Positions 1 to 18,843 are shown, numbered from the stretch's first letter. The stretch is DNA of 64,000 nt from Nitrososphaerota archaeon (GCA_016184315.1 JACPCU010000011.1:24161-88160); one strand, 5' to 3'. The notes: generated by a model not told the origin, from the letters alone. Program-made: numbers and translations.

Positions 1-18
1 CCCGGAGGATAGACGTAA

Positions 19-192
19 CCACGCTACCACACAGGTGAACGAACCCTGTATAGAACCTCTAAAGATGGTAACCCCCTCATCAAGTAATCCTATCAAGAGC
101 TGATAGGGCTGTGCGAATTCTACCGCTACTTCGGGGCACCAACCATCATCGGCGGATGGGCAGTATACTTCCACAACTCGTACTTCGGCTCC
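19..192 (+). pseudogene. Possible N-terminal fragment of a nucleotidyltransferase-like protein
   Basis: Frame 1 reads ...NPLIK*SYQELIGLCEFYRYFGAPTIIGGWAVYFHNSYFGS. There is an in-frame TAA at 85-87. IIGGWAV resembles the GG motif of AbiEii/MNT-like NTases, and similarity ends before the expected DxD. Confidence 0.3.
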
Positions 193-235
193 GAGACACG
201 TTTTGGATGGAATAACCTTTGTAACAAATGGTCGC

Positions 236-679
236 TCATCTCGCTTTATCCGGGGAGAGGACGGGAATCTTCAGCCCAAGATTCCTGTAGTCGAGCATGT
301 TCCACGTTATGAAACCTTCAGAAGTAGCCTCAGCCTGAGCCGCTATCAGGAAGTCGGGTAAGATTCTGTGGACTCCATTCCCTCTACGACTGAGGTGCCT
401 TGAATAAAGTTCACCGGCCCGTTTGGCATTTTTCAGGGATCTAGGGGTCCTTACCTCGATGTTGTTCACTGCAAGAAAGCTTTGTACCCGAGCTTCTTCG
501 GATTTTGGATCATCAGAGAGATACACCCCGGTGTAAAGCTCTGCGTAGACAATGTCTGGCATCACTAACCGAATCTTCTTCTCCCTTGCTCGTCGCAGGA
601 ACCGACCGGTTTCAGCTGCGAACCTGTCATCCCGCAGGTGGCTGACCATCACGTTCGTGTCCAGTGAGTATGTTGTCAT
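236..679 (-). CDS. vapC: PIN-domain (VapC) toxin
   Basis: YSLDTNV...AEL...PDFLIAA PIN motifs; ATG at 679 overlaps the antitoxin stop (ATGA). Confidence 0.88.
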   Translation of the reverse strand: MTTYSLDTNVMVSHLRDDRFAAETGRFLRRAREKKIRLVMPDIVYAELYTGVYLSDDPKSEEARVQSFLAVNNIEVRTPRSLKNAKRAGELYSRHLSRRGNGVHRILPDFLIAAQAEATSEGFITWNMLDYRNLGLKIPVLSPDKAR

Positions 680-930
680 CTCTTTTTGCTCTTCTGTCTG
701 AGCCAGTTCACGATTTCGATGGAGTCTTTCATATCCTTGAAGATTGGGTGTCCTTTCCACACACCCCTAGTCTCCTCCATCACGGATTCCCAGCTCTTTC
801 CCAATTTCTCTACGACGACTTTCCCATCCTGACTTCTAACATCCACTGCGTCTCCTATGTTTATTCCGACTTCCACCCTGACCTCTTCGGGAATAGTTAT
901 CTGGTACCGTCTTGCCACTTTGACTCTCAA
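676..930 (-). CDS. AbrB/MazE/SpoVT-family antitoxin
   Basis: VKVARRYQITIPEEVRVEVGINIGD swapped-hairpin motif; translationally coupled to the PIN gene. Confidence 0.88.
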   Translation of the reverse strand: MRVKVARRYQITIPEEVRVEVGINIGDAVDVRSQDGKVVVEKLGKSWESVMEETRGVWKGHPIFKDMKDSIEIVNWLRQKSKKR

Positions 931-1041
931 CTTACTTCATATTCCTATCATGTAAATAGGATAATAAGCGTTGTGCCGCTTACCATACGTCCCCAACGGC
1001 TAGGAAGATATGGCACTGTTGCGATAGCTGGACTGCTGTGA

Positions 1042-1198
1042 CGGAAAGCCTGAGCTCCTTTGCCACGTGGGCCAGCATCATGCCGTCTCCTTCGACCATG
1101 AGGAAGAGCCTCTCCTTGACATCGGGATTCTCCTCTCCATTGCATAGATCCTCAAGCGCGCCCTTCGATGATGCAATGGAGTCGACATTTGCACCATC
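1042..1198 (-). mobile_element. Remnant of an IS630-like transposase N-terminal HTH
   Basis: LEDLCNGEENPDVKERLFLMVEGDGMMLAHVAKELR resembles the N-terminus of IS630-type transposases; no DDE domain or TIRs seen. Confidence 0.45.
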
Positions 1199-1334
1199 AC
1201 ATGATTGGCACAGTGGCTGAAAAGTATACCACACCTATCAGATTTCTATTATATATTTACGCTAGACGGGATAGACCCGTGTTCAAGTGCTGATACGCAA
1301 TTATGTCTTCTTTTGTTTTATGAAGCGTTAACTA

Positions 1335-1445
1335 ATGGGAAGGTTACTCAATGTTAGGGAGGCTGCCCTTCTTCTGAACGTGAATCGTCAGTTTCTCTGG
1401 AGGCAGATCGATGAAGAGATGACACTCAGATCAAAGGTATCATGA
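1335..1445 (+). pseudogene. Excisionase-like (HTH_17/MerR-type) DNA-binding fragment, 36 aa
   Basis: Manual translation MGRLLNVREAALLLNVNRQFLWRQIDEEMTLRSKVS matches the LLtv.EaA..L.V...tl.r.i excisionase pattern. Confidence 0.5.
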
Positions 1446-1470
1446 GTAATCGGAGATGCAGAAACTAGAC

Positions 1471-1581
1471 TCATAAAATGAGGATTGAAAGTGCTGCTGA
1501 GATTGCTTTCTTTGCTGCTACGATGAGTAAGCCCTTGCCGAGCATGATTTCTCTCGAATCCAGTGTTTCAAATTCTACCAT
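1471..1581 (-). CDS. Small ORF (36 aa), probably a truncated hypothetical protein
   Basis: MVEFETLDSREIMLGKGLLIVAAKKAISAALSILIL preceded by a strong SD (GGAGGTGAAAAAACATG). Confidence 0.4.
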   Translation of the reverse strand: MVEFETLDSREIMLGKGLLIVAAKKAISAALSILIL

Positions 1582-1746
1582 GTTTTTTCACCTCCTGTTA
1601 TTTTTCTGGTTAATGGTGTTGTGAGGCGAACCATCTGGATTTAGCGAAGTGACCTCATCGGAGGGAAATCAAGAATGAGTGAAGCCGAAGCGATCGGAAG
1701 TAAGAAAAGTAAAACTTTAAGTGTTTTGCCGGACACAATTATGATC

Positions 1747-1992
1747 ATGAAGGCAGAGAGCGTAGTGAAGGTATCGACCAAAGGCCAGATAGTGATACCC
1801 AAGGAAGTGCGCAAACAATTCGGAATCCTGCCAGGAAAGAGACTGCTCGTCGCAGTAGAAGCGGATGAGATACTGATCAAGAAAATGGAAGACTTGTCCC
1901 TCGGAGATCTCAGCAAGAAATTGAGCAAGGCCGCCAAGAAAGTGGACGTTGATGCGCTGGTCAACGAGGCAATCCAATGGGCGAGAAAGTAG
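1747..1992 (+). CDS. AbrB/MazE/SpoVT-family antitoxin
   Basis: VVKVSTKGQIVIPKEVRKQFGILPGKRL motif. Confidence 0.9.
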   Translation: MKAESVVKVSTKGQIVIPKEVRKQFGILPGKRLLVAVEADEILIKKMEDLSLGDLSKKLSKAAKKVDVDALVNEAIQWARK

Positions 1993-2417
1993 TCCTCGGC
2001 ACAAACGTATGGGTGTCGATTCTACTTAACAAAACCCTTGCCAAGACATTCGTACCGTTGATTGAAGCGAAAGAGATCGAGCCATGCATGTCGTACGCTC
2101 TCCTGCGGGAGGCAGCCAAGGTGCTGACCTATCCAAGAATAGATACATTATTGCGCGAGGCGAAGGTGAGACCTGAAGCTGCGCTGGCAAGTATCATAAG
2201 AGCGGTCAAACTTGTAAATCCCAGAAAATCCGTTCGGGTGGTTAAGGAAGATCCAGCAGACGACCGCGTTCTGGAGTGTGCACTTGCTGCAAAAGCCAAG
2301 TTCATCATAAGCGGCGACCACCATCTGTTGGCGCTGAAGGAGTACAGAGGAATCAGAATCTTGAAGCCGAGGGAATTCCTTGAATGCACTTTAGACCTGC
2401 GGTCCAATGATTCGTGA
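1977..2417 (+). CDS. vapC: PIN-domain toxin; first catalytic Asp replaced by Gly
   Basis: VVLGTNV (canonical VVLDTNV), DPADDRVLECA, IISGDHHLL; overlaps the antitoxin end. Confidence 0.85.
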   Translation: MGEKVVLGTNVWVSILLNKTLAKTFVPLIEAKEIEPCMSYALLREAAKVLTYPRIDTLLREAKVRPEAALASIIRAVKLVNPRKSVRVVKEDPADDRVLECALAAKAKFIISGDHHLLALKEYRGIRILKPREFLECTLDLRSNDS

Positions 2418-2482
2418 TTTTTGCTACTCAACAAGCGAAGAGCCTACGTTACGGCAGAATCTCCAACTGAGCTTTTTTCATC

Positions 2483-2503
2483 GGTTCAAATCCCTCGCAC
2501 CAC
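2483..2503 (+). repeat. tRNA 3'-end-like spacer repeat R1
   Basis: GGTTCAAATCCCTCGCACCA: T-loop plus an ...ACCA end; the first 12 nt are identical to R2. Confidence 0.5.
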
Positions 2504-2597
2504 AAATAATGAAGAATGGTAGGATGCGTAGCCACCACTCTGGCAAGAATATAGAAAGGAACAAATGCCAAGCTCTTCCAGGAGAAATAACAGACTA

Positions 2598-2931
2598 TTG
2601 AAAGCCAGATCAATCCGGGGCACCCCAATCAGACTGCCTGATGAGAGATGGCAGCACATTATTGAACATCACCCAGCGCTTAAAGGCTTGAAGAGATTGG
2701 TCTTGCAAACAGTCTCCTACCCAGACGCAGTTTATGCTTCACCTACGGATGTTATGTCTAACTTTGCAGCGGTAAAGGATTTCGATGAGCTTGCCAGATT
2801 AGGTCTTTCATCAAGAATTGTCGTTCATTACAGAGAAACGACTACCGATGATGCGTTTATGTTGACAGCCTTTCCCAATCTCACCCAAAAGGGCTCGGAG
2901 GAAGTTTAGAAAGTGGAGCAAAGTCAGGTGA
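2598..2931 (+). pseudogene. Putative toxin partner of DUF2283 (RelE/DUF4258-like hypothetical) with a likely 3' frameshift
   Basis: IRLPDERWQHIIEHHP motif; TTG start after GGAGA. Removing one C from CCC at 2874-2876 gives ...AFPISPKRARRKFRKWSKVR* ending 2 nt before the DUF2283 ATG. Confidence 0.55.
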
Positions 2932-2933
2932 AG

Positions 2934-3182
2934 ATGGCGGTCGACGCCTTCAAGGTCGTAAAGAATGTCCTGAGGAGAATTAGCAAGCCAGTGAAGGGAA
3001 ATAAGATCGTGGCGCTCAGTTACGATGAGGATGCTGATGTCCTCTACGTAAAGTTCAGGCAAGCGGAGATCGTCGATAGCGAATCCCTTGATCCGGAAGG
3101 AATGATCATGGGCTCCCTAGACAAAAGAGGACGAATCACTGGACTGATTATCATGAATGCCTCAAGATACTCCGAAAAGTAG
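2934..3182 (+). CDS. DUF2283-domain protein (putative antitoxin)
   Basis: SYDEDADVLYVKF...LDKRGRITGLIIMNAS; SD AGGTGA before ATG 2934. Confidence 0.8.
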   Translation: MAVDAFKVVKNVLRRISKPVKGNKIVALSYDEDADVLYVKFRQAEIVDSESLDPEGMIMGSLDKRGRITGLIIMNASRYSEK

Positions 3183-3214
3183 GCGCAGGAATAGGTCATT
3201 AGCTGAACGGCTTT

Positions 3215-3240
3215 GCGGGTTCAAATCCCACCGGGCCCGC
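3215..3240 (+). repeat. tRNA 3'-end-like spacer repeat R2 (best-conserved copy)
   Basis: GCGGG-TTCAAAT-CCCAC-CGGGCCC-GC = T arm + 3' acceptor strand + discriminator. Confidence 0.85.
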
Positions 3241-3273
3241 TTACAATCCTAAATTTACGTGATGCGTCCAGAG

Positions 3274-3690
3274 TCATAACATTCGAAGGAATCCGCAGTC
3301 TTCAGCTTTCTTGTACAGCTCTTTGTCCGCAGTAATTACCTCCAACCCCAAAAGTTCGCCTAGTGACAGGTATAAGGAGTCATATACCGTAATGCCATAC
3401 TCGTAAGCCAATTCTGAGCCCCTGCTAACCAGCTCCTTGCTCGGCGCCATAATATCCACCTGCAGGTTAAACAGATCATCAAGAGCTCTGGCCGTGACAT
3501 GGGGGTTGAAGCCCGGTTTGAACCTGAGAGCGTTTGCAATCTCATAGACAAGAAGATCTGGTGCAACGAGCGTCCTTATTCCATCTATATGCTCATTTCT
3601 AACTGCGAGCGCTCGGTCGCTCCCTTCTTCCTCAGAAAACCACTTTACAGCTACCGACGCGTCTATGACCGTCTCCTCTGATCTCTCCAT
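3274..3690 (-). CDS. vapC: PIN-domain (VapC) toxin
   Basis: VIDASVAVKWF...YEIAN...YDSLY...ITAD motifs intact. Confidence 0.9.
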   Translation of the reverse strand: MERSEETVIDASVAVKWFSEEEGSDRALAVRNEHIDGIRTLVAPDLLVYEIANALRFKPGFNPHVTARALDDLFNLQVDIMAPSKELVSRGSELAYEYGITVYDSLYLSLGELLGLEVITADKELYKKAEDCGFLRML

Positions 3691-3926
3691 TTGCGTATTT
3701 CAGCCACTCCAGACCATTCTCCCTTGTATTCGAGTCTGAGTTTATCCATGTTCTTGGCTGCCTTGAGCATCATTTCCTTGTCACGCAGCTTGCTTTGTCT
3801 CTTGGAAGCAACCCACATTCTGAAGGCTTCCGTGGCGGCATCACCTACCTTGATTCCCCGTCTTACTGCCTCTGCCTTCAGGTTTCTGAATGCGCTCTCC
3901 TCAACGTCTTTGATGCTCACACTCAT
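3663..3926 (-). CDS. RHH-like antitoxin (VapB)
   Basis: SIKDVEESAFRNLKAEAVRRG...EAFRMW RHH-type N-terminus; C-terminal SGVAEIRKWRD typical of archaeal VapB; overlaps the PIN gene. Confidence 0.75.
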   Translation of the reverse strand: MSVSIKDVEESAFRNLKAEAVRRGIKVGDAATEAFRMWVASKRQSKLRDKEMMLKAAKNMDKLRLEYKGEWSGVAEIRKWRDQRRRS

Positions 3927-4035
3927 GAAATGAGTTATATGCTCAAACTATAATAACTTTTCTAACTAGTTTGACTAGACGGTAATCCACACTATTTCCC
4001 CAATCGGATTTCGAAAATCTATTCCCCGAACCCGG

Positions 4036-4063
4036 ATGGGTTAGAACCCCACCGGGTCCGCCA
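4036..4063 (+). repeat. tRNA 3'-end-like spacer repeat R3
   Basis: ATGGGTTAGAACCCCACCGGGTCCGCCA; 20/24 identical to R2 and ends in CCA. Confidence 0.8.
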
Positions 4064-4202
4064 TGTCTCGTTAGGCTGTCTTAGCGAGAACTTGCTCAGT
4101 CGGAGTAACCAAAAGGGACCAAGGGCCTATTTGAGATGGGTAGAGCGTGTGTCCTAGAGAGGATTTAATCTCCTATAGTGCAGACGTATTAGGCATTAGG
4201 AA

Positions 4203-4454
4203 TCATTCATAGGCCTTGCTTCGATGCCTAATTCGCAGTACAAGGAGTGTACCATCAATCTTGGTGTATATGACTCGGTATTCTCCTATTCTCAGCTTGT
4301 ACAATCCCTTGAACTCGCCGCTTAGAGGTTCTCCAGCATCAGGGTTCTTGTCCAGAATCTCTTTTATTTCGGAAAGTAGCCGTGCTGCTCGCTTGGGATC
4401 GATGTGCTTAAGATCGCGACTTACGGACGACTTGTAAACTATTTTGTGAACCAA
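4203..4454 (-). CDS. relE: RelE/ParE-family toxin
   Basis: GEPLSGEFKGLYKLRIGEYRVIY...VLRIRHRSKAY. Confidence 0.9.
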   Translation of the reverse strand: MVHKIVYKSSVSRDLKHIDPKRAARLLSEIKEILDKNPDAGEPLSGEFKGLYKLRIGEYRVIYTKIDGTLLVLRIRHRSKAYE

Positions 4455-4662
4455 GCTTGCTTACCAATTCTTTCTCTGTGATTATCGCATCTTCTTTATC
4501 GCTTAACCGGTGCAATGCAATCAAATAATCTTCGTATTCCTCGATGTATTCTTGGAGGGCTTTCCTGATGAGATACGTCTTGGAGCGTTCGATCGTCTTG
4601 GCTAACTTGTTAAGCCTCTTCGCCATCTCTTCAGGTAATCTTACCGAGACCGCTTCGCTCAT
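4408..4662 (-). CDS. CopG/RHH antitoxin (RelB-like)
   Basis: VSVRLPEEMAKRLNKLAKTIERSKTYLIRKALQEY RHH motif. Confidence 0.88.
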   Translation of the reverse strand: MSEAVSVRLPEEMAKRLNKLAKTIERSKTYLIRKALQEYIEEYEDYLIALHRLSDKEDAIITEKELVSKLGSQNSLQVVRKSRS

Positions 4663-4663
4663 C

Positions 4664-4690
4664 ACATGTATTGCGTGTAAGACATGTATT
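4664..4690. promoter_or_regulatory. Candidate RHH operator: ACATGTATT direct repeat (4664-4672, 4682-4690)
   Basis: Two identical 9-mers containing palindromic ACATGT directly upstream of the antitoxin start. Confidence 0.55.
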
Positions 4691-4830
4691 TAATGGTTCC
4701 GAGAAGTCTAAGAGCCGGCGAAAAAGAGCCCTGACTCGATCTTCTTGGATCATTGAATAGTCGGCATCATGATAACATGCACACCTAGACAATTATCTTC
4801 ATAGCTCATGTCCTTTGCCAGTCGGTGCCT

Positions 4831-4909
4831 TGAACCCTGCGAGGCTCAAACCCACGATTTTGAATCCACTTTTTACGACAAAAATGTCTTGAGTTCCCAC
4901 CAGGCCGGT
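4831..4909 (+). repeat. Composite repeat: 36-bp unit shared with 11855, then tRNA-like core R4 (4886-4909)
   Basis: TGAACCCTGCGAGGCTCAAACCCACGATTTTGAATC ... GTCTTGAGTTCCCACCAGGCCGGT (16/24 to R2). Confidence 0.65.
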
Positions 4910-4970
4910 CTTTTCCAACGGGCAGGTTTCGTTCTAGATCTAGGACCGAGTCGGCTCTGCAAACGTATTT

Positions 4971-4990
4971 AAGTAAGGATTTCCTTACTT
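4971..4990. promoter_or_regulatory. Palindromic operator overlapping the TATA box of mazEF
   Basis: AAGTAAGGA-TT-TCCTTACTT, perfect 9-bp arms; TATTTAAG at 4966-4973; ATG at 4999. Confidence 0.65.
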
Positions 4991-4998
4991 TTACAGAA

Positions 4999-5286
4999 AT
5001 GACCGCGACCAACGAACTCACATTCAAGAAGGTGAAGGTTTCAGACAAGGGGCAGATTTCGATACCGGCGGACATGCAGAGGGAAATCGGCATAAAGAAA
5101 GGAGACGAGCTTCTCTTGGTTAGAAAAGGACGTAAAATACTCCTGGAGAAGCCTGAAGTAGTCATCGAACTGCTCGGGGACGAGTTCGCTGACATACAAA
5201 GCATCACGGAAGAATCCTTGGGGCGGATTTGGCTCAACAAAGAAGAAGATATCTGGAACCAGTATCTGAAGGCGAGAAAGAAGTGA
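4999..5286 (+). CDS. AbrB/MazE-family antitoxin
   Basis: VKVSDKGQISIPADMQREIGIKKGDEL; C-terminal W...EEDIW typical of MazF partners. Confidence 0.88.
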   Translation: MTATNELTFKKVKVSDKGQISIPADMQREIGIKKGDELLLVRKGRKILLEKPEVVIELLGDEFADIQSITEESLGRIWLNKEEDIWNQYLKARKK

Positions 5287-5624
5287 TCTCCCAGCGAGAT
5301 GTTGTGCTACTGTCGTTTCCGTTTTCTGATCTGCAAAGCTCGAAGGTAAGACCGGCCATTGTATTGTCAAACGACAGATACAACCGCCGCTCGGAAGATT
5401 TCGTGGCTGCTCCGATCACTTCCAACATGAAATTGAGAGATTACGCGATTCTAATCACCAACAACCAAATGGAAAGTGGCAAGTTAATCGTCGATAGCAA
5501 AGTGAAAGTAGACAGAGTCTTCAGCGTGAGCCAACGACTCGTTAGAATGAAAATTGGCCGAGTGAAGGCCGAAATCCACGAGAAAATAACCAACACTCTC
5601 TTCGAGCTATTAAGTGGCCCGTAA
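5283..5624 (+). CDS. mazF: MazF/PemK-family endoribonuclease toxin
   Basis: RDVVLLSFPFSD...KVRPAIVLSN...APITS; GTG start in a GTGA overlap. Confidence 0.9.
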   Translation: MISQRDVVLLSFPFSDLQSSKVRPAIVLSNDRYNRRSEDFVAAPITSNMKLRDYAILITNNQMESGKLIVDSKVKVDRVFSVSQRLVRMKIGRVKAEIHEKITNTLFELLSGP

Positions 5625-5641
5625 GGTGAGCACATTGAGCA

Positions 5642-5663
5642 GTTCGAAACCCACCGGGCCCGC
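5642..5663 (+). repeat. tRNA 3'-end-like spacer repeat R5
   Basis: GTTCGAAACCCACCGGGCCCGC; 20/24 to R2 over 5640-5663. Confidence 0.85.
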
Positions 5664-5831
5664 ACTCATCTAACGTTCAAAGGTCGGGGTCACCGTGAAC
5701 ATCGACTCTAGTGTCTAATCCCTCTCACACTTATTCTGCTGCGGCTTACATTATCGACAATTGCATGGTGCCTTCCTTCAACGGCATTCCACCATGCAGG
5801 CTGCTTAAATACATGGTTGCGCCGCAATTAT

Positions 5832-6080
5832 ATGGTTGCAATGGGTCAAGTTGCTACGGTGACGAGCAAAAGCATGGTAACTGTTCCTTCAAAAATAAGA
5901 AAGAAGTACGGTCTTCGGCAGGGAAGCAAAGTTGAGTTCGTGGAAGTCGAGGAGGGTTTGTTTCTGGTTCCACTTAAAACGCTCCGTGAATTGAGAGGTG
6001 CTGCAAAGGAGAAATCCAGTCTGTTAGTCGAGGCTGTCAGAGAGCTCAACAGAGAGCACCGAGAGGAAACAAAGAAATGA
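5832..6080 (+). CDS. AbrB/MazE/SpoVT-family antitoxin
   Basis: TVTSKSMVTVPSKIRKKYGLRQGSKVEF. Confidence 0.88.
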   Translation: MVAMGQVATVTSKSMVTVPSKIRKKYGLRQGSKVEFVEVEEGLFLVPLKTLRELRGAAKEKSSLLVEAVRELNREHREETKK

Positions 6081-6475
6081 ACGAGAAACTAGTTCTCGAC
6101 GCAGGCGTGCTGTCTTTGCACTTCGCGGACCACCGAGGTGTCGGCCCGTACTTCGATGCTATCACCGCCGGACGATCCAAGGGACTGATTTCGAGTTTCA
6201 ATCTAGCAGAGTTTTACTACAAGACGTGCCAGAAACTCGGGAAACAGACCGCCGATACCTGGTATTTCCAGGTTAGGAACAGCGAACTCAACATCATCAA
6301 TAGAGAGGAGTTGGTCAGACTAGCTGGCTTGGAAAAGTGCAGACAATCTCATAGGCTCGCGCTTGCAGATTGCTTTGCACTAGCTCTCGCGAAAGCCGAA
6401 GGCGCGCTCCTGCTTACGACCGACGGTGAGCTCGCCAAAATACGTGATGCTAATGTCAAGCACATCAAACTCTGA
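6077..6475 (+). CDS. vapC: PIN-domain (VapC) toxin
   Basis: LVLDAG...NLAEFYY...LADCFALALA...LLTTDGE; ATGA overlap. Confidence 0.9.
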   Translation: MNEKLVLDAGVLSLHFADHRGVGPYFDAITAGRSKGLISSFNLAEFYYKTCQKLGKQTADTWYFQVRNSELNIINREELVRLAGLEKCRQSHRLALADCFALALAKAEGALLLTTDGELAKIRDANVKHIKL

Positions 6476-6638
6476 TGGAATAGGGGTGCGGTCGCCGGGA
6501 CTTCCGCCCGCGTTCGCATCTTAAGAGGCTGGGATTCAATCTGCCTTGTGTTGACCTACATGTTCTCAAGGTGCACTGTTTCACTGCACCTGAACTGCAT
6601 TGACGTTCGGATCCTGTAAGGCCCAATATCATCTGAAA

Positions 6639-6660
6639 GTGAGTCTCACGGGGCCCGCCA
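6639..6660 (+). repeat. tRNA 3'-end-like spacer repeat R6
   Basis: GTGAGTCTCACGGGGCCCGCCA; GGGCCCGC core plus CCA end. Confidence 0.65.
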
Positions 6661-6732
6661 ACGTTATGTTTTATGTAAAAACGACATGAGAGGTGATGCC
6701 TTAGTGTGAAGCTACTTGGGCCCACTGAATAA

Positions 6733-7135
6733 CTAGATCAGCCTAACATTTAGTTCGGCAACCTTCTCAGCATCTTTGAAGTCCCTGCCTTTCGTTATTA
6801 TGCCGTCAGCTCCGTTGGCCAACCCTATCCCACAGACAAGCATATCTAGTGTGTTTATCGGCCTTCCAATCCTGAGAAGGGGCTCCCATGATCTTGGCAG
6901 CCTCTTCGGAAGAGCGGGCATCAAACGGGAGGACAGTTGTCTGTCGGAAGAATGCTTTGAGAGTTCTTTCTTCTTCAGACAGTCTTCTGTGGAAGATAGG
7001 TGACAAGAGTTCGAAGATAGAGATTGTGCTTGTGGCTGTGGGTTCTCTTCTTCTCTCTTCTGACTCAACGATTTCCTTTGTTTTTCCGCCACCTTTTAGA
7101 TAGTCCAGTATTGCTGAGGTATCGAAGAGCATCAA
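6733..7135 (-). pseudogene. vapC: Frameshifted PIN-domain (VapC) toxin
   Basis: LFDTSAILD...SIFELL in one frame, LLRIGRPINTLDMLVCG...ITKGRDF in another; an extra base in the G4 run at 6879-6882 joins them. Confidence 0.85.
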
Positions 7136-7344
7136 ATTCGGATCACAGCCTTACTTCTGATCTTCTCGATATCATGCTCAATTGCCTTTAGATGGGGGTT
7201 ATCTGCCAGTACGCCTGAAAAATGAGTAAGGCTCGGCTTCTCAAATAGCCTCTCGATGACTTCGCTGAAACTCTCTCCTTCCTTCTTAGCCTCGAGCAGT
7301 TTCTTGTACACGTCTTCTCTGATTGCTATGTTTTTGCTTGCCAT
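7132..7344 (-). CDS. VapB-family antitoxin (DUF217-like)
   Basis: MASKNIAIREDVYKKLLEAKKEGESFSEVIERL. Confidence 0.85.
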   Translation of the reverse strand: MASKNIAIREDVYKKLLEAKKEGESFSEVIERLFEKPSLTHFSGVLADNPHLKAIEHDIEKIRSKAVIRI

Positions 7345-7434
7345 GCACAGAGGTATATGTGTCAACATGAGTGTTAAGACTGTAGACTTGCGTCACAATT
7401 GAGCAATGAATCTTTGTAGCTCACACCCATTTAC

Positions 7435-7458
7435 GCTCGAATCCTTCACAAGGCCCGC
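7435..7458 (+). repeat. tRNA 3'-end-like spacer repeat R7
   Basis: GCTCGAATCC[TT]CACAAGGCCCGC; 18/22 to R2 allowing a 2-nt insertion. Confidence 0.55.
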
Positions 7459-7778
7459 TACGATTTGATAATGGGCTCAGTAACTCGTCTAGGACTTGTT
7501 GAACACGGCGAGGGTCTTTTCGACTTGCCTACTTTCAGTATCGGTAGCACTGGGTATTGGTTTTGGATCAAAACAACATGACGATAAGGAGTGTTTGGAG
7601 CGGTTTTTGGGATGGGTTGATTGACAGAGTTCATCTCCTCTTGGCAGTGAAGCTTGTCTGTGACGCTCAGAGAATTGGCCAGCCGCCAAGGCTCTGTGTA
7701 ACAGGTCGACATATATTAGAATTAAATATTTCCTGACAGTAATAAATCCTTATATAGTGAAATACCTATTACATCATT

Positions 7779-8300
7779 ATGTCAAAAATACAAACAGCAA
7801 GCAAACTACCGACATACTTGTTTGCAACGATCGAAAAGCAACAGCTTAACGAAGTATTGCGCAAGTTGAAGGCAGTTGAATACATAAAGTGGTTCGGAAC
7901 TACATCCGGCCGGTTCGATGTCGTAGCCTCGTTCAAAGGCAATGATACACAAGAAACATATGCAGCAATCAAGGAAATCAAGTCCATTAACGGCGTAGTC
8001 TCAACTACCTCAATGGTTCCCTTCGAAGGTCATGTAAATCCAAAGGAGAATGGCGAGCGCGCAATGGGTCAAGTATTCCTAAGAATAGACAGACCAGTCC
8101 AAGACATAATCCAATCCTTGAAGAGAATATCCGGCGTAACGGAGGCCATGGCAGTATCAGGCCAGTGGGACGTTCTGACAACAGTACGCGGACAATCCTA
8201 CGAGGAGATTCTAGCGAAGACTGTTCAGGAAATCTCTCAGATCGACGGAATCCGAACCAGTGAAACAACATTCGTCTACAAGCCGACAGTGGCTGCGTAG
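7779..8300 (+). CDS. Lrp/AsnC ligand-binding-domain protein (two tandem RAM domains, no HTH)
   Basis: Two copies of the (T/V)SG.(F/W)DV(V/L)...I..I.G(V/I)..(T/S).T motif; TTATATA box at about 7750. Confidence 0.75.
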   Translation: MSKIQTASKLPTYLFATIEKQQLNEVLRKLKAVEYIKWFGTTSGRFDVVASFKGNDTQETYAAIKEIKSINGVVSTTSMVPFEGHVNPKENGERAMGQVFLRIDRPVQDIIQSLKRISGVTEAMAVSGQWDVLTTVRGQSYEEILAKTVQEISQIDGIRTSETTFVYKPTVAA

Positions 8301-8456
8301 ACGGACGCCCCCTTTTTCAGTTTTCAAGATAAATACAGAGAAAGCAATTCTAACCAATACCAGAACCTCTGCAACTATGCTGGATGAACCTAGGAATAAT
8401 GGCGGGATACGATTACTGAGTCTGTTTGGATGATCTGAATCGTAAAGATGGCTATA

Positions 8457-9182
8457 CTACGCTTTGATTTTTTCTTTAGGTAAAGCTGTTCTGCTTCTAT
8501 CTATTTCCTGTCGCAAAATCTCGTATGCCTTGGGACCGTCATCCCTACCAAGAATAAGGATCGTTTCTTCTCCGATGTAGGTGTGGCGTAGCTTTATCCC
8601 ATGCCTGTAGAGCAATTCGGTGAGGAAAAACCCGAATTCAGGAGTTGTCTCAACCTCAGCAGAGAGGTGAATCGCCAATCTGGAAAGTCGAGCGGTTTCT
8701 CTTGCGATTAGTATTTTGTCCAAGGATGAATGAATCAAAGAATTGTACTCCCTCTCATCAGCAATCAGTTTGATTGAGTTTGAAAGCTGGAATAGGTGAA
8801 TGGGTTCATTAAGACTGGAAGATAAATCAGCTATCCGCTTTACGATCTGGAACAGCTCAAATTTCTTGCTCTTAATAGTTACATCTACTACGTCGCTGGC
8901 CAGCGTGATTCGCGCCTCCCTTAGAATGAGCAGTGGCTTCGGCTTGCCTACCTTGGTTATTGTATCTGAAAACCTGGTAAGTGCTACCACGATCGTGTTT
9001 ATGCTGGCGGGCTTTCCCACTTGCTTCTCAACCTCAGGTTTGATGTTGGCAGCAAGAGCGTGATAATTGACAATTTTCTGCTTCAGGCACTCGTATACGG
9101 CTGGGTTGTGCGTGACTATGGAAGCTACTGCGGCAGGTACGGAGAGGTTCCTGCTTGACAAATCTACTGTCGATAGGACCAT
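8457..9182 (-). CDS. Conserved archaeal HTH/ACT-like hypothetical protein
   Basis: 241-aa ORF; VNYHALAANI...INTIVVALTRF N-terminus and ACT-like C-terminus. Confidence 0.55.
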   Translation of the reverse strand: MVLSTVDLSSRNLSVPAAVASIVTHNPAVYECLKQKIVNYHALAANIKPEVEKQVGKPASINTIVVALTRFSDTITKVGKPKPLLILREARITLASDVVDVTIKSKKFELFQIVKRIADLSSSLNEPIHLFQLSNSIKLIADEREYNSLIHSSLDKILIARETARLSRLAIHLSAEVETTPEFGFFLTELLYRHGIKLRHTYIGEETILILGRDDGPKAYEILRQEIDRSRTALPKEKIKA

Positions 9183-9360
9183 TAGATGTAATATTTAACC
9201 ATTTGATATAGATAGAAATATATAATAGGTAATGTCTATTACGATAAGTGATCAAACATGACTACTAATGAACAAGGAATAGCACCAGAAACTAAGCCTA
9301 GTCGATTCCAGAATTACTTAAAGCGGATCAGAGCAAGACTTCACCGCTAAGCTTTGATGC

Positions 9361-9416
9361 ATTGAGAAATTGTAGTGAATAGTAACGCAGCTGAGATTCG
9401 GAACCAATTTCTCAAT
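9361..9416. repeat. Perfect 12-bp inverted repeat with a 32-nt spacer
   Basis: ATTGAGAAATTG (9361-9372) / CAATTTCTCAAT (9405-9416). Confidence 0.6.
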
Positions 9417-9480
9417 CAAACCGCAAGAGATGCGGCTTGGATAATTTGGAACAAGGGTAGATGGAGGACGCAAGCCAGGA

Positions 9481-11022
9481 ATGAACAGTGACACTCGCTA
9501 CGCCATCGATTATCACGAAACTACGAAGCACTCGGAGATGAGCATTCGCAATTCAGCTCGTTATCTCGACTGGGAGAACAAGCCTTCACCATTTAAAGTC
9601 TACAGGAACCTTCCATCAATATCACTGCCCCGTGACTTCCCCACCCCAAAGACTAACGCGTTAAGAGCCTTGATGGGAGGAGAGCCAACGTCAAGATCTG
9701 CACCATTCGATATTGATACTCTAGCAGAGGTTCTTTTCTTCTCAGCTGGGCTCACAAGAAAAGTGGATCTGGGCGGGGACACCTACTACATGCGCGCAGC
9801 ACCAGCGACCGGCGCCCTCTATCCAATTGAACTCTACGTGATAAGCAGCGAGACCCCCAATCTTGGTGCAGGAGTATACCACTTCAACCCGCTCCAATTC
9901 ACACTTGTGCGCCTTCGAGAAGGCGACTACAGAAAAGAGCTCGCCATGATGAGCAGCGATAAAGTCTTGAACGCCCCGCTCACCATCGCCTACGCTTCCT
10001 TAGCTTGGAGGAACGCTTGGAAGTACAATGCTCGTTCGTACAGACACTGGTTCTGGGACGGTGGAGTCATAGCCGCTAACCTACTAGCGGCGAACAACTC
10101 CGAAGGTCTACACACGGAGATACTGCTAGGATTTGTGGACTCGGACGTTAACATGCTCCTAGGAATTGACGGGGAGAAGGAGGTCACTATAGCCTTGGCC
10201 CCTGTCGGAATTGGATTGGCCAAAAGCAGCACAGGAGGGGGGAAAGATATTGCTCCGCTCCATCCCACGGTCGTCCTAGCTTCAAAAGAAACAGAATACC
10301 AGATCATCTGGGATACACACAAGGCATCGTATCTTGAGACAGAGCAAGAGGTAAGGGCATGGGACGGTGCGGAAGTCCCCCGTGAAAGGAGCAATGTGCA
10401 TCATGGCGCGACATTCCATCTAAAGCCTCCGGAAGAGGTCTTGAGAAATCTTAATGAAGTCATCCTTCAACGCGGCTCTACGAGAAGATTCGCCAAGCAG
10501 CCTATCACCCTTGAGAAGCTATCCGCAATTCTCTTAGCGTCTTCGACAGATGTTCCATTCGACTTCGCCAAAGGGAGAAACCTCGTAGACATCTACCTGG
10601 TGGTGAACGATGTTACAGGCCTGCCAAGCGGTTCATACTTCTTTGACAAGGAGTCCAATTCGCTCCTGCAGCTCAAGGCCGGTGAATTCAGAAAGACGTC
10701 AGCCTATCTCTGCTTGGAACAGCCCCTTTTTGGCGACGCGAGCGTAGCCCTCTATTTTATGGCGGACTTGAAAACGGTTCTTGGGTCACTGGGCAACAGG
10801 GGTTATCGAGCATGTCAGTTTGAGGCTGGAGTGAGGGCGGGGAAGGTCTACCTATCTGCCTACTCGCTCGGCATCGGTGCATCGGGCTCAACCTTCTATG
10901 ATGATGCCGTCACTGAGTTCTTTTCTCCGCACGCTTCGGACAAGAGCACCATGATTGCCCTAGGGGTAGGGGTCCCAGCTTACAGCGCAAGGCCAGGTAA
11001 GGTCCTTCCTCAAATACAGTAG
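9481..11022 (+). CDS. SagB/ThcOx-family dehydrogenase (tandem nitroreductase domains)
   Basis: RAAPATGALYPIELY, GVYHFNP, RYRH-like YRHWFWDGG; second domain QRGSTRRF, RGYRACQFEAG, FYDD. Confidence 0.85.
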   Translation: MNSDTRYAIDYHETTKHSEMSIRNSARYLDWENKPSPFKVYRNLPSISLPRDFPTPKTNALRALMGGEPTSRSAPFDIDTLAEVLFFSAGLTRKVDLGGDTYYMRAAPATGALYPIELYVISSETPNLGAGVYHFNPLQFTLVRLREGDYRKELAMMSSDKVLNAPLTIAYASLAWRNAWKYNARSYRHWFWDGGVIAANLLAANNSEGLHTEILLGFVDSDVNMLLGIDGEKEVTIALAPVGIGLAKSSTGGGKDIAPLHPTVVLASKETEYQIIWDTHKASYLETEQEVRAWDGAEVPRERSNVHHGATFHLKPPEEVLRNLNEVILQRGSTRRFAKQPITLEKLSAILLASSTDVPFDFAKGRNLVDIYLVVNDVTGLPSGSYFFDKESNSLLQLKAGEFRKTSAYLCLEQPLFGDASVALYFMADLKTVLGSLGNRGYRACQFEAGVRAGKVYLSAYSLGIGASGSTFYDDAVTEFFSPHASDKSTMIALGVGVPAYSARPGKVLPQIQ

Positions 11023-11384
11023 TATCTTTTCCCAGCCCTGCTCCGATATATTGGATGCCCGACAGAATTACATATTGGGCGACCAGTAAAGTGTCTGTTG
11101 TGGAAAACTTGGCCATGAAGAACCTATTGCTCATACCTTCGGAGCATCAAATGAAGGGCTTCCAAGGTTCTTGATTCAAAGGTTTATCAAAAGATATGGA
11201 ACTAGTCGGCGGCGAAACCATACGCAGCAAGCGAATATAGGGCCAACAAGACGAAATGCCCGAGCAAAACAAAGCCTTGGCCCCCATGTTCTATAAAGTT
11301 CTTAACAAGAAGAGCATCGAGTCGATCTACGAGTTGTGTAGCCCAAGAAACAAGTTTCTTGATTGATTCTCCAGTGAAACTCTA

Positions 11385-11780
11385 TTAGGGGTTGCTTTTC
11401 ACGAATTTGAAGGAAGCGGAGTTAATGCAGTATCTCAGACCAGTCGGCTTGGGCCCATCCTCGAAGACATGGCCAAGGTGTGCCCCACAATTGGCGCACT
11501 GAACATCAATCCTCACCATACCATGACTGCGATCCGTTTCTTCCTTAACCGCCTCTCTCTTAAGGGGGGCCCAGAAACTAGGCCAGCCTGTTCCCGAATC
11601 ATATTTCGTGTCGGACGAGAAGAGTGGAATGTCGCAAACTACACAACAGTATGTACCCTGCTCCTTGTTGTCCCAGTATGCCCCTGTGAATGACGGCTCG
11701 GTTCCCTTGTTGAAGCACACGTCGTATTGAAGGGGCGTCAGCGTTTCCTTCAACTTTCCCTTATCTACTCTTGCACTCAT
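11385..11780 (-). CDS. msrB: Peptide-methionine (R)-S-oxide reductase
   Basis: [40 protein letters not shown]. Confidence 0.97.
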
Positions 11781-11854
11781 TAGTTGATCACATGAAAGAA
11801 GTGGCTAATGACCTTTGTGCCTCCAAGTAGACACGTATGATCATGAATATGTTG

Positions 11855-11922
11855 TGAACACTGCGAGGCTCAAATCCACATTTTGAATCTTCAGCTCCAA
11901 GAACGTATTGGATCGCACCGGG
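11855..11922 (+). repeat. Second copy of the composite repeat seen at 4831
   Basis: TGAACACTGCGAGGCTCAAATCCAC-ATTTTGAATC ... GTATTGGATCGCACCGGG. Confidence 0.65.
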
Positions 11923-11960
11923 TAAGTTCTATTCTTTGAGAGCCTTCGATGTTCGAAGAA

Positions 11961-12254
11961 TTAACGGAAAGAGGATTTCTTGCGGCGTTTGCACATTTCA
12001 ATCTTTTCGGCCCGCGACATCCTCTTGATTTCCGCTTCCCTTCTCATGGCTTGTACACGGCTCCCGCATCGCTCTTGATAAACGAGAGTCACCGGCCGCC
12101 TGCTTCTTGTGAACTTTGAAGCAGTTCCCCTGTTATGCTCTGCCAGCCGCCTTTTGATGTTGCTGGTGTAACCCGTGTACAGGTGTCTTGTTCTACACTC
12201 CAACACGTAAACGCAATAGGTCATATTCTGAGGACAGTCCTCCACATACACCAC
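11961..12254 (-). CDS. GIY-YIG nuclease (UPF0213-like)
   Basis: YCVYVLEC...LYTGYTSNIKRRLAEHN...AMRREAEIK. Confidence 0.9.
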   Translation of the reverse strand: MVYVEDCPQNMTYCVYVLECRTRHLYTGYTSNIKRRLAEHNRGTASKFTRSRRPVTLVYQERCGSRVQAMRREAEIKRMSRAEKIEMCKRRKKSSFR

Positions 12255-14820: not shown

Positions 14821-15063
14821 ATGGCATCGACGATTACTGTGGATAAGGCCGGCAGGATGGTAATCCCAAAGAAGATTCGTAAAAAGCTAGGTCTAGCAGG
14901 GGAGGGAGTAGTGACTATAGAGGTAAAGGGGTCAGAGGTGGTGCTAAAGCGATCTGCGGTGGAGAAGAGCCCTTCTAAGGCCATTTCTAAAATGAACCTA
15001 CCCGTAGGTCCCTGGCATCAGATTGAGAAGGAAATTGAAGAGGGCGCCGTCATGGAACAATAG
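14821..15063 (+). CDS. AbrB/MazE/SpoVT-family antitoxin
   Basis: TVDKAGRMVIPKKIRKKLGL. Confidence 0.88.
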   Translation: MASTITVDKAGRMVIPKKIRKKLGLAGEGVVTIEVKGSEVVLKRSAVEKSPSKAISKMNLPVGPWHQIEKEIEEGAVMEQ

Positions 15064-15065
15064 GT

Positions 15066-15500
15066 ATGGTTTCCGAAACTCTCTTCTTGGATACGAGCAT
15101 ACCCATCTACGCAGCAGGTAAGCCGAGCGAGCATAAGGATGCATGCATCAAGATCCTTGAAAGGATTGAGAGAGGGGAATTGAAAACCGCCATAGATACA
15201 GAAGTCATACAGGAGATACTATACCGATTCCATAGGCTCAATATGCAAGGACATGGTATTGAACTCAGCAGACAAGTCCTGAGGCTTGGGGTGAGGGTTC
15301 TCCCGGTGCTGAGGAGAGACATAGATGAAGCGCTTCTGTTATTCAACAAATATTTTTCGAGGGGAGTTCCTCCACGGGACGCGCTTCACGCTTCGGTGAT
15401 GGTCAACAACGGTATCAACAAGATCGTAACCCTGGACAAGCACTTCGGTGACGTCATGACGGAACTCCAAAGGGTTGAGCCTAAAAGACTGGTTTTTTGA
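15066..15500 (+). CDS. vapC: PIN-domain (VapC) toxin
   Basis: LFLDTSIPIYA...EVIQEIL...RDALHAS...VTLDKHF. Confidence 0.9.
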   Translation: MVSETLFLDTSIPIYAAGKPSEHKDACIKILERIERGELKTAIDTEVIQEILYRFHRLNMQGHGIELSRQVLRLGVRVLPVLRRDIDEALLLFNKYFSRGVPPRDALHASVMVNNGINKIVTLDKHFGDVMTELQRVEPKRLVF

Positions 15501-15561: not shown

Positions 15562-16587
15562 TTAAGAGTTATCATCTATCACAGAGATTGTCTGACTTGC
15601 AGAGTTGGCCACATAGATCTTGTTGGCAGCGGCATAAACACCAACACTTCTTGTTTCGCTTCCCACGGTTACTGAACCAATGGCCGTGTTGGTCGTACCG
15701 TCGACTATGGTAACGTTGTTGCTTCCAAAGTTAGAGAAGTAGACCCTGTTCGTGTTCGGATTAACACCGACTCCCTGACATCTGCATCCGGTATTCATGA
15801 TGCCCATCAAGAGATTTGTGTTTCCATCGATTACGTATGTGTAGGAGGTACCTATGTCGCCAACATAGATTCTGTTCGTGTTGGGGTTTACTCCGATGGG
15901 TTCGGGCCATGTATTAGGGCCGAGAGTGATGTTTCCCTTGACGGAATCTGTCGAACCGTCAATTACCGCTAGGTAACCTACACTTTGATAGTAGCCTAGA
16001 ATAGGGCTAATAGTCCTAGTCGCTCTTATGCAGCTCACGTAGACCATATTTGTGTTTGGGTTAACCGCGACGTCAATAGCCCCGATGCTTCCTGAGGGTT
16101 GCATTCCAGATGGGTATGTACCACATGGCCTCTCAAGGTTCTTGATGATGGTGTTCGTTGAACCATCTATCACGGATATGTCCCTATGATTTGAAACAAC
16201 GTATATCTTGTTGGTGTTCGGATTAACTGCTACGCCCAAGACACCACCTTCTCCTAGCCAAATCGTGGCTACTACAGCGTTGGTTGAGCCATCTATGACA
16301 AAGACATTGCTGGTGTTACTCTCAACACGGTTGTAGGTCATTACGTACACCCTATTCGTGTCAGGATTGACATCAATATCATAGGGATAACCTCCCAATG
16401 ATATAGTGGCTACTGAACTTTCCGCAGAGGCGTAGTTGCGCACAAACAACGCCAGTGAAGAAAATAACAGAATAGAGGCAACTAGCAGAACTATCAACCC
16501 ATGCTTCCCTTGACCAAGGCTTCTGTCTAACTCCCGCACTCCACTAGCAGAGCGCATAGTCATGCAATCAATATGAGTCCTCAGCAC
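15562..16587 (-). CDS. Secreted YVTN/YncE-type beta-propeller protein
   Basis: N-terminal TM/signal; repeated VNP.TN..YV....V.VIDG.TN units. Confidence 0.85.
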   Translation of the reverse strand: MLRTHIDCMTMRSASGVRELDRSLGQGKHGLIVLLVASILLFSSLALFVRNYASAESSVATISLGGYPYDIDVNPDTNRVYVMTYNRVESNTSNVFVIDGSTNAVVATIWLGEGGVLGVAVNPNTNKIYVVSNHRDISVIDGSTNTIIKNLERPCGTYPSGMQPSGSIGAIDVAVNPNTNMVYVSCIRATRTISPILGYYQSVGYLAVIDGSTDSVKGNITLGPNTWPEPIGVNPNTNRIYVGDIGTSYTYVIDGNTNLLMGIMNTGCRCQGVGVNPNTNRVYFSNFGSNNVTIVDGTTNTAIGSVTVGSETRSVGVYAAANKIYVANSASQTISVIDDNS

Positions 16588-17783: not shown

Positions 17784-18611
17784 CTACAGATTGGAGAATA
17801 TCCCTATGATCACCGGAACATCTGCTCCTGCATGGAACAGAATTGCTCCGAGCAGGCTCCGCGTCTTCTGAGTTAGAACCCCGAATGCCACCCCAAGGAA
17901 GAACGTTATGCCCAGAAACACGAAGATCTCGGGCGTGTAACGCACATCAACATGTGCCAGCGAGAAAACTACCGCTTGCAACGCATTGGCAGCCCTATGC
18001 CCGACGAAGCTCTCAAACCTCGGTAGAAGAAGCCCCCTAATCCAAACCTCTTCCCGCACGCCGTTCGAAAGCACAAACAACAAGATCCAATGCATCCACA
18101 ACAATACACGCTCAAAGCTCACATCTCTACCAGCAAAGAGACTCGTGGCACCCTGCACAGACGTAACAAGAAAAAACATGAACGCCGCCAACCCCAACAC
18201 AAGCCCCATCCTGAATCTTCCCTTCGCAACATAGATGGACGCCATGCTGCCGCCCGCGATTCTGGTCAAGGCGATTATGGGAATAATGACCAATATGGTG
18301 TTGAAGACCGTTGAAGCAACTACATCAGAAACTGTTGAACCCGACCACCAGTTAAATGCGACAACCACCTGCTGGAGCGCGCTCACAAAACCAGCCAAGA
18401 AAAAAGCAAAGGCAACATCAAAGTACTTTCTCAGATGATTCTTCCCGCGCAAAAACATTGCCGACAACAGGAACGCAACAGAAATCCCTAGGATGTACGC
18501 AGTCAGGAAATCTCTTGGCATAAAGACTCGGAAAGCGAAGATCGACAGACCACACATGAGAAAAAGCCCAAAAAAGCCCATACGGCGCAAGCTTTCTGTC
18601 ATTCCCACCAC
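17784..18611 (-). CDS. CPBP (CAAX protease/Abi) intramembrane metalloprotease
   Basis: REEVWIRG, FSLAH, HAGAD motifs in a TM protein. Confidence 0.85.
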   Translation of the reverse strand: MVGMTESLRRMGFFGLFLMCGLSIFAFRVFMPRDFLTAYILGISVAFLLSAMFLRGKNHLRKYFDVAFAFFLAGFVSALQQVVVAFNWWSGSTVSDVVASTVFNTILVIIPIIALTRIAGGSMASIYVAKGRFRMGLVLGLAAFMFFLVTSVQGATSLFAGRDVSFERVLLWMHWILLFVLSNGVREEVWIRGLLLPRFESFVGHRAANALQAVVFSLAHVDVRYTPEIFVFLGITFFLGVAFGVLTQKTRSLLGAILFHAGADVPVIIGIFSNL

Positions 18612-18843
18612 GCGTCCCAGAATTGGCTAACACAGGCTATAAGCAATCCATTAATTCGATGACCACAAACTTTCAACCCAGCCAATGCGGCCCCTCCTGT
18701 TAAGATCAAGTAATCTACTCCCAAACCTACAGCGTCTCCAGATTACACCTGCCGCAAATACTCAATTCTCCGAAGGCAACAGAAATTCCCTGAACCCCAC
18801 TATCTTGATATGGTTCCGATCAAATGGAGAACCACGGCTTCCT

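Follow-up and report, generated by a model that had tools for sequence, protein, structure and literature searches.

Toxin-antitoxin modules at the left end of the window

The left end of a 64,000-nucleotide stretch of DNA from a Nitrososphaerota archaeon (GCA_016184315.1, JACPCU010000011.1) carries a row of small toxin-antitoxin (TA) operons parted by short copies of the 3' ends of transfer RNA (tRNA) genes. This stretch, referred to here as the window, is C1:24161-88160 of G000, a metagenome-assembled genome (MAG; 2.02 Mb, 35 contigs, about 92% complete) that derives from groundwater metagenomes. G000 probably represents a non-ammonia-oxidising lineage of the Nitrososphaerales (Thaumarchaeota), since archaeal AmoA was found in four other families of the order and is absent from G000. 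A preliminary description had proposed that the region is a row of TA cassettes with tRNA 3'-end repeats, and this was confirmed: Pfam searches identified eight type II TA modules across window positions 236-7368, on both strands, and co-oriented tRNA fragments part six units of the row. The modules are as follows.

236-930, minus strand: VapC (PIN) and VapB (AbrB/MazE-type); Pfam PF01850 and PF04014; leftmost in the window
1747-2417, plus strand: VapB (AbrB) and VapC (PIN_3); Pfam
2565-3182, plus strand: 114-aa protein without a Pfam match and DUF2283 protein; Pfam PF10049
3274-3926, minus strand: VapC (PIN) and antitoxin; Pfam PF01850
4203-4665, minus strand: ParE/RelE toxin and ribbon-helix-helix (RHH) antitoxin; Pfam
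4999-5624, plus strand: MazE and MazF/PemK; Pfam
5817-6475, plus strand: VapB (AbrB) and VapC (PIN); Pfam
6733-7368, minus strand: VapB (PF02697) and frameshifted PIN; Pfam and open reading frames

The TA domain families in the array are PIN, PIN_3, MazE/AbrB, PemK, ParE, RHH_1, VAPB_antitox and DUF2283. Adjacent small antitoxin and toxin genes with domains of these families mark the modules as predicted type II TA systems. The six units delimited by the repeats R1 to R7 lie end to end and measure 737, 822, 847, 753, 997 and 800 bp, with flanks of at most 160 nt. The array extends to the left through the VapBC pair at 236-930 and another VapBC pair to a repeat, R0, at window -1847..-1761, and to the right as far as a third composite repeat at 11851-11922. 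Signs of decay were also found in the island, namely an hsdS fragment and the frameshifted PIN gene.

tRNA 3'-end fragments between the modules

A position weight matrix (PWM) was built from the last 24 nt of the tRNAs of the genome and scanned over 4.03 million positions. Together with blastn, nhmmer and a 14-mer search it delimits the following fragments.

2481-2504, plus strand: R1, T loop and acceptor strand GCACCAC-A; PWM score 18.1, rank 36 of 4.03 million, right behind the true tRNAs
3217-3241, plus strand: R2, T arm, acceptor strand, G73 and +1 of tRNA-Arg(CCT); blastn 25/25, PWM score 35.5
4038-4063, plus strand: R3, tRNA 3'-end fragment GGGTTAGAACCCCACCGGGTCCGCCA; PWM score 22.6; left limit of a block shared with a sister species
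4826-4910, plus strand: R4, right arm of a composite repeat (type B, see below); nhmmer E=5e-21
5640-5663, plus strand: R5, tRNA 3'-end fragment CAGTTCGAAACCCACCGGGCCCGC; blastn 22 nt at 95%, PWM score 19.6
6487-6510, minus strand: tRNA-Gly(TCC)-like 3'-end fragment, 15/16; blastn, PWM score 8.1
6641-6660, plus strand: R6, degenerate fragment GAGTCTCACGGGGCCCGCCA, 13/14 plus CA; 14-mer search with 2 mismatches
7435-7460, plus strand: R7, degenerate fragment GCTCGAATCCTTCACAAGGCCCGCTA with GGCCCGCTAC exact, 10/10 of the acceptor end; sequence and alignment
11851-11922, plus strand: degenerate third type-B copy; nhmmer E=9e-8; between msrB and a GIY-YIG gene

The clustering and co-orientation of these fragments are far above chance. 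Genome-wide, 111 positions reach a PWM score of at least 8, about 30 of which are tRNAs; about 0.2 matches per strand are therefore expected in 9.5 kb, and five were seen on the plus strand, an enrichment of about 25-fold or more. When up to 2 mismatches are allowed, the 14-mer CCCACCGGGCCCGC is present five times in C1:22385-30818, every time on the plus strand, and by both the 14-mer search and the PWM the motif is not spread over intergenic DNA.

The fragments are heterogeneous, with at least three tRNA origins, two architectures and one member on the minus strand. R2 is identical over 25 nt to the 3' ends of two tRNA genes (blastn), and R0, R3 and R5 have a 14-nt core in common with the parent tRNA-Arg(CCT) described below. 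R1 belongs to another tRNA type, whose GCACCAC acceptor is unmatched in this assembly. The single tRNA consensus first suggested does not extend to R1. R1, R4, R6 and R7 had been regarded as weak. R6 and R7 are indeed degenerate; they lie in the expected gaps and have degenerate counterparts at matching places in the sister species. R1 ranks directly behind the true tRNAs in the PWM scan, and R4 lies in the composite repeat. The claim that a repeat follows each module, always on the plus strand, needs two corrections: no repeat was found between the modules lying from R0 to R1, and the minus-strand Gly-like fragment means that 'always plus' is not strictly true.

Many G000 tRNA genes contain introns, and only 23 tRNA genes score above the Rfam cut-off despite the 92% completeness. 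Strong 3'-end matches at C6:17426, C15:25057, C2:62330 and C30:22532 may be undetected intron-rich tRNAs or scars of attachment (att) sites.

The parent tRNA-Arg(CCT), its integrase and a full-size element

No tRNA was found on contig C1 with ARAGORN or Infernal. The parent gene lies on contig C34: a tRNA-Arg(CCT) at C34:20782-20870, the 3' end of which is GGGTTCAAATCCCACCGGGCCCGC and the last 25 nt of which are R2. A 422-aa tyrosine recombinase with R..HxxR..Y motifs (C34:20936-22204) begins 65 nt past this tRNA. A gene for a HerA-like ATPase is split between the two contigs, with its C-terminal half at the end of C34 and its N-terminal half at the start of C1, and three independently assembled contigs (1412, 4177 and 2394 nt) bridge C34 and C1 with a 73-nt gap. 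tRNA-Arg(CCT) therefore lies 27,260 nt before position 1 of the window and shares its strand with the fragments. Both a parent tRNA to the left of the window and a tyrosine recombinase upstream, as anticipated in the preliminary description, are thus present.

The region from the tRNA to R0 is a full-size element that ends in a type-B site and has the anatomy attL-element-attR. Its genes encode the integrase, the HerA-like ATPase, a type I restriction-modification (R-M) system, methyltransferases, a second recombinase, Orc1/Cdc6, Vsr/Dcm and a HATPase protein. Two features of tRNA-borne islands were found here: an intact tRNA with a co-oriented direct repeat of its 3' end at the other end (tRNA-Arg(CCT) and R2), and an integrase adjoining the tRNA-side att site on C34, an arrangement that has a match in genome G152. 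The Pfam Phage_integrase match is weak or absent. No NCBIfam integron-integrase model identified an IntI-type enzyme, XerA-like matches scoring 33-61 bits against a cut-off of 220, and no relatives of this integrase, or of a second type found on contig C35, were found in viral contigs.

The 20 kb directly left of the window (C1:4161-24160, window -20000..-1) are a defence and mobile-element island with hsdR/M/S, a second DNA methyltransferase, the HerA-like ATPase, Orc1/Cdc6, Vsr plus Dcm and a 562-aa HATPase protein. The tyrosine recombinase encoded there ends in a C-terminal zinc ribbon, and dcm contains 16 N at positions 15970-15985 of these 20 kb.

A conserved composite junction repeat

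R4 is one copy of a composite repeat of ~85 nt, termed type B, in which a conserved ~40-nt box, GAACCCTGCGAGGCTCGAACCCACGATTTTGAATCCAC, is followed by a short A/T hairpin that has T-runs on each strand and then by an arm from a tRNA 3' end. The genome contains 10 or more copies (nhmmer), including R0 at C1:22313-22399, 1.8 kb left of the window. When 14 copies, taken from 5 genomes and 2 metagenome contigs, are aligned, the box is constant and the right arm varies with the local tRNA (Ala, Arg-like, Tyr-like); since the right arm tracks the local tRNA, type B is attR-like, with an element arm and a chromosomal arm. The outer dyad is weak (6 bp, -1.2 kcal/mol in RNAalifold), with 2 compensatory pairs between box and right arm, and the register of the small hairpin varies between copies. 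Neither attC boxes (RYYYAAC ... GTTRRRY) nor any Rfam match at E<=10 were found in window 1-12000, which includes R4, and the aligned type-B copies have no conserved GTTRRRY end.

Two other identities of the repeat were rejected. Type-B copies have a short peptide-like stretch, ANPxRLEPTILNPL, in common; a coding remnant such as intN was ruled out, as there is no frame beyond about 14 codons and no similarity to integrases. The minus strand looks like degenerate tRNA pieces; its T stem and acceptor show no covariation, and neither ARAGORN nor Infernal calls a tRNA there. There are hints in the sequence that the box may stem from the integrase-proximal arm of the C35 element family. On contig C35, a box-like, tRNA-3'-end-like sequence (C35:25985-26023) overlaps the start of the second integrase type (C35:26016-27332).

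Exact-pattern scans for the box gave a chance cyanobacterial match only among GTDB representatives and one unrelated match in IMG/VR. Nine matches were obtained in metagenomes; they include three type-B copies (L020, L025 and L021), two of them near-identical, and two loci, L023 and L024, in which the box adjoins a tRNA-like 3' end. Like TA pairs, small genes for retropepsin-like aspartyl proteases adjoin fragments of tRNA 3' ends or type-B boxes (C4:23589-25494, L023 6262-6633 and L024 1003-1374), one of them paired with a DUF5678 protein. These genes may represent another addictive or defence module type.

Genes for an AsnC-type regulator, a 241-aa protein, a nitroreductase-like protein and msrB occupy window positions 7779-11780, to the right of the TA row. 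As the third type-B copy sits between msrB and the GIY-YIG nuclease gene, these genes may be another att-bounded unit, of non-TA content. A VapBC pair (AbrB-type antitoxin and PIN) outside the array, at 14821-15500, has no tRNA fragment detected close by. A solitary CRISPR-repeat-like 38-mer, AGATGCAGAAACTAGACTCATAAAATGAGGATTGAAAG, lies at window 1454-1491, where the contig depth is 10-25x that of the flanks; it has 8 scattered solo copies in the MAG and no array there. Copies of AGATGCAGAAACTAGACTCATAAAATGAGGATTGAAAG separated by 32-37-nt spacers occur in metagenome contigs, which shows that the samples contain a CRISPR array built on this repeat.

Similar ladders at other tRNAs

Arrays of the same kind were found at other tRNA genes of G000. 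tRNA-Ala(GGC) on contig C4 has three co-oriented copies of its last 14 nt downstream, of which those at +2.2 and +3.0 kb are exact and the one at +3.65 kb has one mismatch. The units here are a DUF5678/aspartyl-protease set, HicAB and a ParE pair, and two junctions are type-B repeats with an Ala-specific right arm. Like ladders occur at tRNA-Lys, at another tRNA on C11 and at tRNA-Pro, where the units are RelE/ParE pairs, VapBC, an R-M system and an ATPase. As a control, the last 14 nt of each tRNA were sought within 12 kb of it with at most 1 mismatch; four matches were found downstream on the same strand, compared with none in each of three control classes.

An SSV-type partitioned integrase at tRNA-Pro brackets a 5-kb element (C15:18426-23535). 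Its two pieces, intN (18426-18644) and intC (22528-23520; matched by Pfam 'Archaeal phage integrase'), each overlap a 47-nt duplicate of the tRNA's 5' portion, and RelBE and VapBC units with tRNA fragments lie downstream of the element. No SSV-type intN or intC fragments were found at the att borders of the TA arrays.

Gain and loss of units between relatives

Within the genus the comparison involves one genome, the fragmented assembly of the sister species G001. In G001 the tRNA-Ala site is empty (contig C182): the tRNA joins the flank that follows the last fragment in G000, with breakpoints at the tRNA end and at that fragment, so the 3.7-kb tRNA-Ala array is an insertion bounded by the repeats. 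The predicted gain or loss of whole modules with breakpoints in the repeats is thus borne out by a relative. At tRNA-Arg no empty site was found in fragmented G001, in which only unit-level differences are visible. Blocks common to both tRNA-Arg arrays are VapB 697-1064 (89%), ParE/RHH 4045-4709 (80%) and VapB 7090-7445 (80%). The similarity ends at R3 and R7. The ParE/RHH unit of G001 retains R3 on the left and the type-B box on the right, and its neighbours differ on both sides; of the module at 6733-7368 the VapB part is retained and the PIN part is not. Between the outer shared blocks, G001 has 3 kb of different genes compared with 6 kb in G000.

Three further families of the order also have type-B repeats, as do unrelated metagenome contigs; across families the repeats are conserved at 76-89%, next to unrelated cargo. 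One metagenome contig contains tRNA, VapBC and type B as a single 868-bp unit. G000 and a genome from a different family have in common a block of type B, VapBC and fragment that is 69% identical at the nucleotide level, and the integrase lies on opposite sides of it in the two. Of 201 genomes sampled from the order, 97 have the C34-type integrase family, often as several or broken copies. In a complete genome of another family, a homologous integrase follows a tRNA ending in CCCACCGGGCCCGC; its 2.6-kb element is succeeded by a fragment, a two-component unit of 2.8 kb without an integrase, and a second fragment.

Within the population the module order is identical in eight or more assemblies, and no skipped or circular forms or variant junctions were found among assembled contigs (Logan, four groundwater runs; exact-protein look-ups), so that the expected shuffling and excised circles did not appear. 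Apparent joints 3239->4831 were dismissed as variants; they are other loci with these repeats (23-nt sides). One run, X4, has zero depth over MazEF, with 86% of that run read.

Origin of the array

There is firm support for repeated site-specific integration at the 3' ends of tRNAs; the anatomy of the array, its parent tRNA and integrase, the recurrence at other tRNAs, and the gain and loss at att boundaries between species are all observed. How the single units arose is less certain, and we consider it somewhat probable that the TA row is an accretion ladder of non-autonomous, att-bounded units resembling cis-mobilisable elements (CIMEs). The left window end would then form the far portion of an integration hotspot of 34.7 kb that has tRNA-Arg(CCT) as its anchor. 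A tyrosine recombinase family found across the order would recombine the att site of an incoming element with the T-arm and 3'-acceptor segment of the tRNA; the integrase next to the tRNA may act on these sites, probably with a crossover near CCCAC. Every integration would rebuild the tRNA and displace the earlier 3' end downstream, so that repetition would yield a co-oriented ladder of 14-25-nt tRNA 3'-end copies. The youngest, full-size element would be the one from the tRNA to R0, with integrase-less rungs to its right: six of 0.74-1.0 kb, each with one predicted type II TA operon, which may derive from small integrative elements through loss of the integrase. The units would persist because TA operons are addictive, and they may stabilise or defend the island. 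Six units are bordered by att-type direct repeats and contain no recombinase gene; with both borders kept, several of them with a conserved arm of ~85 nt, they would be excised, lost or moved only by an integrase acting in trans or together with an autonomous neighbour, if they are mobile at present.

Loss of the integrase is favoured because the island contains debris, sites are heterogeneous or missing, several units have been stable since the species split and the order is fixed. It is favoured, too, because broken integrases are frequent in the order and autonomous elements down to 2.6 kb exist, consisting of an integrase and 2-3 genes, from which a single deletion is enough to make such a unit. 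Several points weigh against it. A tblastn search of 26 kb of such arrays at E<=1 yielded only two insignificant matches and no integrase relic, and the uniform compactness of the units is not obviously predicted by random decay. Type B is better conserved across families than any cargo it accompanies, and that cargo is unrelated, which suits a dedicated cassette site equally well. Among assembled contigs, the only material examined, there was no read-level evidence of excision or of action in trans. Fragments of other tRNAs, namely R1 and the Gly-like piece, require extra events.

A possible but rather doubtful alternative is an integron-like cassette system, in which minimal circles of one operon and one att site (type B or a bare T-arm/acceptor) are captured singly at the tRNA by a host- or element-encoded tyrosine recombinase and can be excised and reshuffled individually. 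The six consecutive units of 737-997 bp with flanks of at most 160 nt and no integrase relics are in line with it, as are the occurrence of type B in at least four families with VapBC, ParE/RHH, HicAB, R-M and 25-kb element cargo, the 868-bp tRNA/VapBC/type-B unit in an unrelated metagenome contig, the type-B-VapBC-fragment block that two families conserve with integrases on opposite sides, and the weak dyad between box and right arm with its 2 compensatory pairs. However, there is no IntI-type integrase and there are no attC boxes; the sites are heterogeneous and some are missing; operons of mixed orientation would presumably each need their own promoter; eight or more assemblies agree on one fixed order; several units common to sister species at 80-89% identity are therefore old and stable; and elements as small as 2.6 kb are autonomous (PMC6563490), one deletion yielding such a unit. 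The integron-like reading of the preliminary description is partly supported; it does not extend to IntI or attC, and the repeats are heterogeneous and some modules lack one. The units may have been mobilised in trans as minimal cassettes, a proposal that stays conditional because serial integration with integrase loss explains the same anatomy. In its general form, a Nitrososphaerales-type tRNA-att cassette system of one-operon units with their own ~85-nt site, captured, excised and reshuffled at tRNA 3' ends by a widespread tyrosine recombinase family, can be put forward only tentatively. We are equally hesitant to call such units, mostly TA but also R-M and other small modules, a functional analogue of the integron on tRNA-derived sites.

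The whole TA row could also have arrived at once, as internal cargo of one large element in which the internal repeats are inert inherited scars. This is improbable, and it is similarly improbable that arrays generally move en bloc between their outermost att sites. The presence of the entire 3.7-kb tRNA-Ala array in G000 and its absence as a block from G001 would suit such transfer, and as R2 is a perfect copy of the tRNA end, the ~30.5 kb between the tRNA and R2 could represent a single recent element with R0 and R1 inside it from the start. The units of the tRNA-Arg array, by contrast, are partly shared and partly different between species, with breaks at the repeats, so change took place unit by unit too. 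We regard it as very improbable that the short motifs match by chance or serve in regulation or termination without a link to recombination. The T-runs of type B on both strands could terminate archaeal transcription, and R6 and R7 are degenerate, but neither idea accounts for exact tRNA matches of 25/25 and 14/14, strict co-orientation, the enrichment over chance and an empty site in a relative that breaks exactly at the repeats; moreover, a fragment without the 5' half cannot take a tRNA-like fold.

Relation to known systems

The accretion reading has a counterpart in the CIMEs and the accretion-mobilisation at att sites of integrative and conjugative elements (ICEs) in the ICESt1/St3 family of Streptococcus thermophilus. 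There, too, units bounded by attL and attR and devoid of an integrase are stacked beside an autonomous element of the same site and can move only in trans or with their neighbour; here the site is an archaeal tRNA 3' end, the rungs are many one-operon TA units of 0.7-1 kb, and mobilisation in trans is hypothetical.

Chromosomal integrons with TA cassettes, such as the Vibrio superintegron, contain frequent TA modules that are thought to stabilise the array. The likeness lies in small units each followed by a recombination site, in frequent TA cargo and in sites that are alike within a genome. Unlike these integrons, the array has no IntI, attI, attC boxes or Pc, its sites derive from tRNAs, and its modules lie on both strands where integron cassettes are co-oriented and read from Pc. 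Membership of the array among the integrons fails.

In thaumarchaea, cryptic integrated elements (CIEs) down to 2.6 kb are integrated in the 3' portion of tRNA genes, with VapBC and R-M as cargo; arrays arise by re-use of one site, and the median att length is 17 bp (Krupovic et al. 2019, PMC6563490). The present array apparently has in common with CIEs the host order, and shares the tRNA 3' targets, the short att sites and the VapBC/R-M cargo. CIEs are defined by an integrase, however, and ladders of integrase-less single-operon units were not reported (PMC6563490). The element left of R0 would qualify as a CIE, and the TA rungs would not.

Tycheposons of Prochlorococcus are tyrosine-recombinase elements found at few tRNA genes (bioRxiv 10.1101/2020.12.28.424599). 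In both systems newcomers push older elements inward, and partial tRNA copies and degenerate remnants are scattered in islands. Tycheposons are bacterial, with replication modules, multi-kb cargo and fragmented integrases, whereas the array has single TA operons, no integrase relics and a conserved 85-nt composite junction. In the Sulfolobales, captured SSV-type and plasmid elements degenerate and leave traces at tRNAs, where vapBC and relE are enriched (PMC3119797). Successive integration at tRNA genes followed by degeneration is common to both; intN fragments overlapping the tRNA are retained there, and none occur in these arrays.

Arrays at one att site, short thaumarchaeal att sites, small CIEs, tycheposon islands and the degeneration of captured elements are therefore already known. 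What is new is a regular ladder, seen at several tRNAs, of single-TA units without an integrase, together with a composite junction of ~85 nt that is conserved.

If the units are only scars, the array would be a very clean archaeal example of the rung-by-rung building of a tRNA island, in which addiction modules outlive their carrier elements, and this would help to explain many archaeal TA pairs. If they are mobilised in trans, they would represent a second, independent invention of gene cassettes, in archaea and on tRNA-derived sites, within an order that includes ammonia oxidisers. In either case, the 85-nt junction repeat and the integrase family that recurs in nearly half of the sampled genomes are concrete, testable parts.

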